From contig NZ_CP157793.1 of NCBI RefSeq assembly GCF_040110915.1, forward strand, positions 258,939 to 322,938: 64,000 nucleotides of DNA. The letters are read 5' to 3'. The notes beneath the pieces were generated by a model. It saw only the letters and a program-made list of their open reading frames with translations. It did not search any database and was not told where the DNA came from. A program made the position numbers and the translations under genes. Numbering within the stretch: the first letter of the stretch is position 1; every line of letters starts with the position of its first letter. Shown in pieces: positions 47,684-49,428 of this stretch. This DNA comes from Stappia sp. (GTDB lineage: Bacteria; Pseudomonadota; Alphaproteobacteria; Rhizobiales; Stappiaceae).

Positions 47684-49428
47684 GAAGGCTCTCCCGTCGA
47701 GCGGCTCGCATCCTTGGCATGCGACCGGCTCGCATCCTCGGCATGCGACCGGCTCGCATCTTCAGCATGCGCGGCGAGCATGGCGCGCACCGTTTCCACC
47801 AGCGCGTCCTCGGCGACGCTGACCTGCGCCGGCCGGCTTGCCCGCCAGGTGACATTGTCCGCGATCTCGCCGGACAGCCGCTTGCCCTCGATCAGGTCCT
47901 TGATCTGCACCTCGCCCGCGTCGCGCTCGTCCGAGCCCTGGATGATGGCGAGCGGGCAGCCGCGCCGGTCGGCGTATTTGAGCTGGTTGCCGAATTTCTT
48001 CCAGTTGCCCTGGTACATTTCCGCGCGGATGCCGGCGTCGCGAAGGGTCTGCGTCAGGCCCTGATAGCGGGCGAGCGCGGCCGCGTCGCCGTCCATCACG
48101 GTGACCAGCACCGGCGGGAGAATGGCGGTGGCTTCCAGCTTGCCGAGGTTCTTGAGCGCGCTCATCAGCCGCGACACGCCGATGGAAAAGCCCGTCGCCG
48201 GCACGTCGCGGCCGGTGAAGCGCTTGACGAGACCGTCGTAGCGCCCGCCCCCTCCGACCGAGCCGAAGCGCACGACCTCGCCCTTCTCGTTGGTCACGTC
48301 GAACAGAAGCTCCGCCTCGTAGACCGGGCCGGTGTAATACTCGAGCCCGCGCACACAAGTCACATCCACTCGAATTCGGTCCGCCTCGTAACCGCAGGAA
48401 AGGCATAAGTCTATGGTTCTATCTAGTTCAATCATGCCTTCTTTAAAAGTTTTACTTTCTGAAAATACTCCAAATACCGATTCAGCTAAGACGAAAAATT
48501 TTGAGAATACAGTCTTTTGGCCTTCTGCAATGAGTTTCTTAATGTTTTCGCGGAACTCCGGAAAAGGTCTTAGAGAAAAATTTTTGTCGGCCAAGGAAAA
48601 TTTGGAAAAGTCCTCATATAGATCGAGAATATCATCATCATCTTCGCTCAACGGCCGATATGCGAACTCCTGAGCGTAAATCAGACTCAAAACAGACCCA
48701 ATTTGATTCTCGCTCAGCCTCGCTCCTTTGGTGAAATCTCCCTTTCCTTGTGCGCCACCATCCCAGCGGCCGTCGCCCAGCAGCAGGCGCACGCCCTCCA
48801 CTCCGAACTTGTCCAGCTTGTCGATGGCCCGAAGCACCGTGAGGCGACGCTCCGCCTCGTCTTCGCCACCAAGCCCGATCGCTTCCAGCACGCCGTCGAG
48901 CACCTTGCGGTTGTTGACGCGGATGACGTATTGGCCGCGCGGAATGCCGAGCGCTTCCATGGCGTCGGCCATCATCATGCACATTTCCGCGTCCGCCTGG
49001 ACGCCCGGCGCGCCGACCGTATCGGCGTCGAACTGCATGAACTGGCGGAAGCGGCCCGGCCCGGGCTTTTCGTTGCGGAACACCCAGCCCGAGCGATAGG
49101 TGCGATAGGGCATCTGGATGTCGTTGATGTTTTCCGCCACATGGCGGGCGAGCGGCGCGGTCAGGTCGTAACGCAGGGACATCCACTGCTCGTCGTCGTC
49201 CTGAACGGAAAACACGCCGGCGTTCGGCCGGTCGGTGTCGGGCAGGAACTTGCCGAGGCAGTCGGTGTACTCGAAGGCCGGCGTCTCCACCGGATCGAAG
49301 CCGTAGCGCTCGTAGACGCGCTTGATCTTCGCCAGCATCGCCTCGCTCGCGCGGATGTCGTCGGCGGAGCGGTCCGCGAAGCCGCGCGGCAGGCGCGCCT
49401 TGAGCTTGCTCGGTTTGGACTTGGCCAT
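47680..49428 (-). CDS. hisS: Histidine--tRNA ligase with an AT-rich internal insert and a C-terminal tandem repeat
   Basis: [11 protein letters not shown], motif-2 [28 protein letters not shown], anticodon-binding domain. Confidence 0.97.
47702..47771. repeat. In-frame 24-bp tandem repeat x3 at the hisS 3' end
   Basis: CGGCTCGCATCCTTGGCATGCGAC / CGGCTCGCATCCTCGGCATGCGAC / CGGCTCGCATCTTCAGCATGCG, encoding HA(E/K)DASRS x3. Confidence 0.95.

Follow-up and report, generated by a model that had tools for sequence, protein, structure and literature searches.

Genes for aminoacyl-tRNA synthetases are counted among the housekeeping genes that evolve slowly and are informative about vertical descent. 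Such synthetases were nevertheless listed among the segmentally variable genes of Zheng, Roberts & Kasif (2004), with the insertion domain of ProRS as an example; histidyl-tRNA synthetase (HisRS, the product of hisS) was not mentioned (PMC387263). For the alphaproteobacterial HisRS acting on tRNA-His without G-1 (Rhizobiales, Caulobacterales, Rhodobacterales), "several unique insertions" are mentioned in PMC3064791 (refs 27 and 28 therein). The hisS gene described here lies in a 64-kb stretch (64,000 nucleotides) of Stappia sp. DNA (NZ_CP157793.1, positions 258,939 to 322,938), called the window below, and contains an AT-rich tract in frame. This tract is probably one allele, of a cassette family designated F5, of a hypervariable and horizontally exchanged segment forming the middle of the HisRS insertion domain, for which a mechanism, a product and a driver are proposed.

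In HsdS of the Type I restriction-modification systems, target-recognition domains are swapped, many alleles exist per species, and the cassettes are often of lower GC. Like HsdS, HisRS is a cytoplasmic protein in which conserved frame regions serve as recombination anchors for unrelated cassettes; the HsdS cassettes, however, recognize DNA and are driven by conflict with phages and mobile elements, whereas hisS is an essential translation gene, and the two share no sequence similarity. Rickettsia palindromic elements, which Ogata et al. are said to have described in 2000, are reportedly selfish DNA lying in frame within protein genes. The hisS cassette resembles them as an extra in-frame peptide in a housekeeping protein of an alphaproteobacterium; unlike these multi-copy, palindromic elements of ~100-150 bp, it is single-copy, non-palindromic, locus-specific and allelic. 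Flagellin central domains and mosaic outer-membrane proteins (PMC12175518) have in common with it local recombination, purifying selection on the flanks and old lineages shared across species, but they are surface-exposed targets of phages or immunity and HisRS is intracellular.

The variable region of a segmentally variable gene measures at least 70 aa and lies amid well-conserved regions (PMC387263). The hisS segment is of this kind: a 75-aa private core lies in a 137-aa tract, and the histories of flanks and cassette disagree. The genes of that class diverge between distant species, however, whereas hisS cassettes differ at flanks with 98% identity or more and are shared beyond the limits of genera and families. 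The window HisRS belongs to the same enzyme lineage as the insertions of PMC3064791, which are treated there as lineage characters co-evolved with tRNA; no description of intraspecific hypervariability or of cassette exchange was found in the texts consulted. In the literature on the HisRS insertion domain in alphaproteobacteria and on mosaic or hypervariable hisS, no account of intraspecific, horizontally exchanged HisRS cassettes was found. Lineage-specific HisRS insertions (PMC3064791) and the place of synthetases among segmentally variable genes (PMC387263) are already known, and the surprise is the gene involved.

The gene is a single open reading frame (ORF) of 582 codons, in which the AT-rich tract stays in frame.

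47680..49428, minus strand: hisS, histidine--tRNA ligase, 582 aa (ORF; TIGR00442; Pfam PF13393, PF03129, PF00587)

The product passed the cut-off of the TIGR00442 hisS equivalog (NCBIfam; 356.5 bits, cut-off 286.75) and matched Pfam PF13393 (6.4e-40), the anticodon-binding PF03129 (4.3e-11) and PF00587. The class II core is intact and in frame, with R360-G367 (RGLEYYTG) and G392-D398 (GGGRYD) invariant among 55 relatives; the atypical motif-2 loop GPGRFRQF at residues 123-130 was likewise invariant in the relatives' alignment. The nearest relatives were HisRS of Stappiaceae and Rhizobiaceae, and Rhizobiales are listed among the lineages with tRNA-His lacking G-1 (PMC3064791). By taxon and by GPGRFRQF the window HisRS can be assigned to the alphaproteobacterial type charging such a tRNA, as proposed in a first-pass annotation made from the letters of the window. 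No tRNA gene was found within the 64-kb window.

The limits of the tract were set by comparison with close relatives. The closest relative found, a JGI metagenome contig (L082), was collinear with positions 43714-53507 of the window (9.7 kb at 92-94% nucleotide identity), and the sole large non-homologous interval was 48355-48767, homology ending at 48767 and returning at 48355. A second break of ~78 nt, an indel, lay outside hisS near 49927-50005. Outside codons ~166-360 the hisS genes were 93-100% identical (dS 0.13, dN 0.014), whereas the cassettes gave a pN of 0.51 and a pS of 0.83 and are unrelated. Identity to L082 rose to 97-100% from 48354 onward, and contigs of related strains from runs X2 and X7 broke at 48354; the X7 contig carried another allele, in which 267 nt replaced 420 nt with junctions at 48354/48775. 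Against these limits, the interval first annotated as a foreign cassette, 48352-48760, was off by only a few bases at one end and by 14 at the other. The parts are as follows.

48355..48774, minus strand: exchangeable cassette, 420 bp, codons ~219/222-358 (homology break with L082, X7 contig junctions, GC)
48397..48723, minus strand: AT-rich centre, residues 236-344, the private sequence of cassette family F5 (composition; sole relative L081/P0002 at 65% aa identity)
48721..48741, minus strand: GDFTKGA block, left anchor, with AT-ending codons here (GGA GAT TTC ACC AAA GGA GCG) (sequence)
48328..48354, minus strand: VRGLEYYTG block, right anchor and putative recombination junction (identity jump against L082; X2/X7 contig breaks)
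48766..48933, minus strand: codons 166-221, a conserved protein segment and putative extended conversion tract of one partner (identity to the sister strain L082)

In the protein, the cassette segment comprises a 16-residue loop, the first insertion-domain helix, the 75-residue private core, the last helix and the strand DRIRVDVTC. The last helix (26 residues) is conserved, and the strand leads into the invariant VRGLEYYTG. The bounding blocks are nearly invariant, LLGxGR/GDFTKGA on one side and a block of 16 residues on the other; within GDFTKGA, G230, D231, T233, G235 and A236 were invariant among the 55 relatives and F232 nearly so, K234 being neither. The best alignments with solved HisRS (Nostoc 3NET, human 4PHC) covered residues to ~217 and again from ~322, with ~105 residues between them having no counterpart. 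Placement in the insertion domain had been claimed at first pass and was borne out, upstream of VRGLEYYTG in the Rhizobiales-type enzyme, by Pfam, by the alignment with solved HisRS and by PMC3064791. In Thermus HisRS, basic residues of this domain clamp the acceptor stem of the tRNA, and the domain undergoes a rigid-body movement on tRNA binding (PMC4357726). Because the tract contains the loop, both conserved helices and the strand besides the private core, it is best described as a replacement of the insertion-domain middle, more than as an added piece. The edges of the cassette are modules (WDGG..GKG / KDESG and DVTC / DPSV) that are reshuffled without regard to the core. The DVTC found where DPSV is usual, remarked upon earlier as atypical, is a real substitution and one of these modules, a variant that recurs in other relatives.

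The GC content of 48421-48660 was 87/240 = 36.25%, the 36% counted at first pass. For the whole non-homologous tract 48355-48774 (420 bp) it was 43.1% (z = -6.6); all 420-bp windows of the 64 kb had a mean of 68.0% (sd 3.8%), and the lowest value elsewhere was 55.5%. GC at third codon positions (GC3), measured along hisS in 20-codon windows, dropped from 0.85-1.0 to 0.15-0.55 over codons ~221-360 and had recovered by codon ~361. At the three codon positions (GC1/GC2/GC3), residues 236-345 gave 0.46/0.32/0.40, and the rest of hisS 0.64-0.70/0.45/0.91-0.92. The share of Gly, Ala, Arg and Pro fell from 34% of residues in the rest of hisS to 16% in the cassette. Codons of classes with a relative synonymous codon usage below 0.2 in neighbouring genes made up 25% of cassette codons as against 1.6% in those genes; CTA, AGA, ACT, GTA, TTA and ATA occurred 14 times in the cassette and in 0/1618 reference codons. 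The open frame of 107 codons rich in Phe, Lys and Ser, with a DDDD run, corresponds to S239-C345 (107 residues; Phe 10.9%, Ser 10.9%, Lys 7.3%), with DDDD at 263-266, and codons of low GC indeed reach into the conserved residues to either side (GKGDFTKGA on one, a 12-residue stretch on the other); both observations had been made at first pass. No sigma-70-like promoters were found in the AT-rich tract. An 86-aa ORF antisense to the cassette (48413-48673, plus strand) had no family match, no promoter-like site nearby and no evidence of conservation, and is probably spurious.

An abrupt compositional step in a possibly metagenome-derived genome might arise from an assembly chimera or from contaminating low-GC DNA, which is scarcely credible in the present case. 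In run X1 (marine metagenome) an unbranched unitig of 1165 nt covered 47887-49051 with 0 differences, thereby spanning both junctions, at a depth of 30.4 compared with 31.5 and 30.9 for the adjoining contigs. Because this unitig is unbranched and at flank depth, the cassette segment is contiguous and single-copy. The reading frame and the conserved helices are kept, and the contig L081 (Logan ERR3079556, an independent sample) has an in-frame cassette of this type at the corresponding position, again within hisS-hisZ-hisG. The chimeric assembly against which the first-pass annotation had cautioned was not seen.

An in-frame mobile or selfish element (an intein, a group I/II intron, a miniature inverted repeat of the Rickettsia-palindromic type or the remnant of an insertion sequence) would account for a compositionally foreign, in-frame block in an essential alphaproteobacterial gene, and there is a superficial likeness to inteins and to the Rickettsia elements. 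Such an origin is very improbable. The insert had no Pfam match and no bracketing junction residues of the intein type; it had no terminal direct or inverted repeats, no second copy in 64 kb, and was single-copy by depth. Moreover, the tract takes the place of conserved helices instead of being added to them, and cassettes vary in sequence and length between genomes. The only Rfam match, a sub-threshold trypanosomatid small nucleolar RNA, lay outside the cassette and was not relevant, and no direct or inverted repeats of meaning were found at the cassette; no mobile-element signature was found, nor had a transposase, intein or intron signature been seen at first pass.

Three candidate elements were rejected individually. 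An intein was rejected since the tract opens with W222 (WDGG) and the residue after it is V359 (VRG), only C358 is intein-like and has no preceding His-Asn, no Pfam match was obtained, and conserved HisRS helices lie inside. A miniature inverted-repeat or Rickettsia-palindromic element was rejected on finding only chance repeats of 12-15 nt, no other copy in the window and flank-level depth. The variable region of a diversity-generating retroelement was rejected because there is no repeat of the cassette within 64 kb and the alleles, of 62-150 aa, cannot be aligned.

Cassette diversity was surveyed in a sample of ~200 Hyphomicrobiales HisRS (120 homologues and 85 fetched loci), in which the segment equivalent to W222-C358 ranged from 62 to 150 residues. 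The core was taken as the segment left after trimming the conserved helices, at least 15 residues being required (157 sequences). These 157 cores fell into 63 families mutually unrelated by BLAST; in profile-profile comparison of the families (hhalign) no homology was found, the best probability being 42% and the others below 15%. Cassette classes differed in 301 pairs with flank aa identity of at least 0.96, and members of one family were found at flank identities down to 0.77, the dataset minimum being 0.74. Eleven cassette classes were carried by 17 Stappia indica-like sequences in which flank identity was 98% or more; the three of these for which DNA was available were 95-100% identical in nucleotides outside nt ~690-990 and at random level inside. 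The same families recurred across genera and families of bacteria, with cross-genus alignments at 46-67% aa identity. The alignment of hisS from close strains proposed at first pass therefore gave a hypervariable interval between near-identical relatives and flanks that follow relatedness, and the contrary outcome, one insert at host-like GC3 in all relatives, was not seen. The homology-anchored swap of a variable module in a housekeeping enzyme that had been suspected is strongly supported by this pattern; the event is a cassette swap, but it is an instance of an order-wide polymorphism and not the oddity of one genome.

Cassettes travelled with variable lengths of flanking hisS sequence. Codons 170-221 of the window were 83% identical to L082 in nucleotides and 93% in protein, compared with 95-97% nucleotide identity for the rest of hisS. 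In L082, these codons were closest to Rhizobiaceae (0.84-0.87), and its cassette belongs to family F3, which is shared with Agrobacterium sp. DSM 25558; from these two affinities it follows that L082 took a tract of about codons 170-358 from a Rhizobiaceae-like donor, GC-rich flanks being joined to a lower-GC cassette.

The flanks of L081, a carrier at 68% GC, were more distant from the window (dS 0.48), and its cassette was 65% identical in aa to that of the window (pN 0.21; pS 0.86, saturated). Because synonymous sites are saturated in the cassette while the flank dS is only 0.48, the F5 cassette lineage is either older than the split of the flanks or independently acquired; its protein sequence appears to be constrained. 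In hisS of L081 (4001-5716 of that contig) the low-GC3 tract begins at about codon 175, compared with ~221 in the window, and spans the conserved HisRS residues ~175-234. Since the low-GC3 tracts start at different codons, L081 and the window have different left breakpoints.

Homologous recombination is well supported as the mode of cassette exchange. DNA carrying hisS from a different strain or genus would enter, recombine in the conserved blocks by a RecA-type process and replace the resident cassette, the frame of the essential hisS being kept. The bounding blocks are ~80% identical in nucleotides across genera, with exact runs typically of 17-38 nt, and by minimal-homology requirements such runs suffice for occasional RecA-mediated exchange.

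The low GC content was related to the rarity of the cassette. The common families F0 (canonical Rhizobiaceae) and F1 (widespread in Stappiaceae) had a mean GC3 deficit of 0.04 against their flanks, and the rare families 0.25; the deficit of the window, 0.49, was the largest seen, and cassette length correlated with the deficit (rho = 0.80). In 44 rare cassettes the core GC3 was 0.50 ± 0.11 and was uncorrelated (r = 0.05) with the GC3 of the host flanks, which ran from 0.53 to 0.91. Because core GC3 is ~0.5 whatever the GC3 of the host flanks, low GC would be a shared property of rare cassettes and not the trace of one donor. This property can be read in two ways. Cassettes may form a pool with a composition of its own, moving faster than they drift to that of the host; or a sequence without partners may escape GC-biased gene conversion (PMC4450053), or another force that keeps GC high, and lie near mutational equilibrium. 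GC1 and GC2 in the window cassette are lower than its GC3 predicts, which mildly favours an origin in a lower-GC background.

The first-pass annotation had attributed the cassette to a low-GC donor, which is not established: neither a donor nor a native low-GC context was found, and the sister cassette of L082 came with GC-rich flanks. In its strict form this explanation supposes a single recent import from an organism of ~30-40% GC with the same HisRS type, the composition of which has not yet drifted, and it is considered unlikely. The GC1/GC2 of 0.46/0.32 are those of genomes of at most 35% GC and the GC3 of 0.40 is somewhat higher, which is the order of partial drift by the Muto-Osawa and Lawrence-Ochman relations; AT-ending codons run into conserved flank residues, and the low-GC3 tract of L081 likewise covers conserved codons (~175-234). 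On the other hand, no low-GC carrier was found among 5.8 billion proteins, 1.84 billion representatives, JGI metagenome contigs and IMG/VR, in searches that had blind spots, and the only other carrier is also at 68% GC. The two F5 copies are saturated at synonymous sites and both are still AT-rich, and low GC3 is common to the 44 rare cassettes across hosts of very different GC.

These searches were as follows. The 109-aa insert gave no scored match in a word-index protein search, using a tool that apparently gathers only targets of similar length, since it missed the window's own protein. Exhaustive HMMER comparison with the 1.84 billion representatives, where clustering at 50% may hide HisRS carriers, gave only a spurious, repeat-summed match to eukaryotic DUF4590, and the insert matched no other protein family. 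In tblastn the insert gave two chance matches (E = 0.7) in phages and none in plasmids, and scans of JGI metagenome contigs and IMG/VR with patterns from the F5 alignment gave nothing. With a 180-aa query made of the cassette and its flanks, the only matches were fragments of HisRS no longer than 315 aa; where they covered most of the query, identity was 30-40%. With whole HisRS, only distant Firmicutes-type fragments were found in phages, and matches in plasmids were mostly to replicons of megabase size.

The structure of the product was predicted with AlphaFold2 (AF2) from 55 relatives. Six helices were placed in the cassette (240-256, 264-275, 289-301, 307-318, 320-324 and 326-344), with a mean predicted local distance difference test (pLDDT) of 62-86 in 10-residue blocks, and Foldseek matches of the full model were to the HisRS fold only. 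Cores were net acidic in 53/63 families. In the product, the first and the last insertion-domain helix, both conserved and both belonging to the region that holds the acceptor stem in solved HisRS, would be kept, with a private, acidic and helical appendage of ~75 residues, folded and constrained, in addition. Because canonical relatives lack the appendage, having only 4-19 core residues there, it is dispensable for catalysis. It may be a folded, solvent-exposed extension of the acceptor-stem clamp. Apart from the F5 pair, same-family cassette pairs had a pN of 0.04-0.37, and a dN/dS of 0.03-0.24 where dS could be estimated; within families in general, pN/pS went up to ~0.45.

Two drivers suggested at first pass are unlikely. 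Changed tRNA recognition, or co-evolution with tRNA, is improbable because one species-level group, with HisRS flanks at least 98% identical, carries 11 unrelated cassette classes. Escape from an antibiotic is improbable since known synthetase inhibitors act at the active site, and resistance to these by a distal subdomain is unlikely.

The turnover of cassettes relative to the rest of hisS suggests, by analogy, loci under negative frequency-dependent selection, among them HsdS recognition domains, flagellin and mosaic outer-membrane proteins (PMC12175518). Such selection, exerted by an intracellular antagonist (a phage protein or an interbacterial toxin, a possibility also raised at first pass) docking on the HisRS surface, would keep many old cassette lineages in being, and is put forward tentatively as a driver that falls somewhat short of probable. 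In a more specific form, about which greater doubt is in order, the cassette would be an interface of intracellular conflict, where a phage protein, a contact-dependent or type VI toxin or a selfish element would have to bind HisRS, be it to hit its target or to be activated by a host factor, and Hyphomicrobiales would escape by swapping cassettes from a shared ancient pool.

Near-neutral tolerance is a serious rival to a driver of this kind, although taken by itself it is also rather unlikely. The tip of the insertion domain would then be functionless in the G-1-independent HisRS; indels and imports would accumulate and be spread by recombination, low GC would result from AT-biased mutation with no force restoring GC, and there would be neither an antagonist nor any adaptive value. 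Forms with 4-19 core residues exist, so that the appendage is dispensable; cassettes are unrelated to any other protein family; a GC3 of ~0.5 whatever the host would fit a common mutational equilibrium; and the deficit is confined to rare families without homologous partners, as the model of GC-biased gene conversion predicts (PMC4450053). Tolerance accords less well with the non-synonymous change in same-family pairs, which is well below the synonymous, with the helices predicted in the window cassette at moderate to good confidence and the consistently acidic cores, and with the growth of cassettes to as many as 150 residues without their being lost. It also leaves the 11 classes in 17 near-identical S. 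indica-like backgrounds to be accounted for, a turnover far above that of the adjacent 1.3 kb of hisS. Elsewhere, patterns of this kind are characteristic of loci under diversifying selection.

Several points weigh against an exchanged, constrained and selected F5 cassette. No HisRS antagonist of phage or toxin type was found in the literature and none was found near hisS. No donor of the window cassette was found, and F5 has only two known carriers. The full AF2 model was poor (mean pLDDT 64; predicted template modelling score, pTM, 0.54), with the catalytic core poorly modelled, probably as a result of the shallow alignment, and a single-sequence model of the domain had a pLDDT of 37. Synonymous sites were saturated in most same-family comparisons, where dN/dS is only bounded, and purifying selection could mean no more than that an essential enzyme must fold properly. 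The diversity counts were made on cluster representatives at 90% identity, in which distinct alleles are over-represented and allele frequencies are not reflected.

The allelic diversity of hisS is of a kind normally seen in phage receptors or restriction-specificity subunits. If selection maintains the cassettes, this points to antagonists or partners of the translation machinery, of a class not yet known, in Hyphomicrobiales, a large order of ecological importance (rhizobia, agrobacteria, marine Stappiaceae). If that selection comes from conflict, an aminoacyl-tRNA synthetase would be behaving like an O-antigen or HsdS locus, and as a by-product sequence excluded from homologous exchange would fall to a GC3 of ~0.5 whatever the genome GC. 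If the cassettes are neutral, they offer a clear-cut natural test of what determines GC content in GC-rich bacteria, with cassette GC3 ~0.5 set against host GC3 of 0.53-0.91. In these taxa hisS should not be relied on as a phylogenetic marker.

Long-cassette alleles and fragments of hisS are already being mislabelled by annotation pipelines. Long-cassette HisRS was annotated as "HisS family protein", and many hisS fragments as "ATP phosphoribosyltransferase regulatory subunit, partial", the designation of HisZ (P0004, P0107, P0131, P0138, P0147, P0167 and others). Several hisS products of 211-305 aa came from contigs whose lengths ran from 79 kb to 4.1 Mb (e.g. P0124, P0126, P0136, P0164, P0209), which suggests genes split or miscalled at the cassette. 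In Rhizobium/Agrobacterium loci L020, L021, L022, L026, L035, L049 and L076 the tblastn match was ~2.6 kb long instead of ~1.5 kb and the cassette was canonical, at 82 aa; the additional stretch probably comes from the neighbouring paralogue hisZ having been joined on, with no insertion.

The remaining features of the locus are these.

46568..47683, minus strand: hisZ, HisRS paralogue, ATP phosphoribosyltransferase regulatory subunit (ORF; Pfam; synteny in L081/L082)
47698..47771, minus strand: 24-nt tandem repeat, 3.1 copies, encoding the HAEDASRS repeats of the HisRS C-terminal tail (Tandem Repeats Finder, TRF)

The operon order is hisS-hisZ-hisG with hisS first, and the same synteny was found in L081 and L082. 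The hisS stop and the hisZ start overlap by 4 nt (ATGA, 47680-47683), hisG starts 8 nt past hisZ, and the operon is conserved in L081-L085; it joins the aminoacylation enzyme with HisZ/HisG, the first step of histidine biosynthesis. The 24-nt repeat (a peptide of 24 residues) lies just upstream of the hisZ start and is separate from the cassette. Its copy number is polymorphic, because the X2 and X7 contigs of related strains skip 48 nt (two units); L082 has three units.

PADLOC gave nothing significant, only a weak match to Aga1 (E = 0.029). Hitch-hiking of the cassette on neighbouring glycosyltransferase genes was ruled out, both halves of hisS around the cassette being near-identical between strains. 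Divergent from hisS is a glycosyltransferase-2/GtrA-like fusion gene (49693-51117, plus strand), followed in relatives by PMT_2 and YdjC genes, a Gtr-like set for surface-glycan modification. The N-terminus of the fusion protein contains a Pro/Gly/Ala-rich repeat (GAPGPAPSS.. GPAPYGEDAS GPAPYGKDA).

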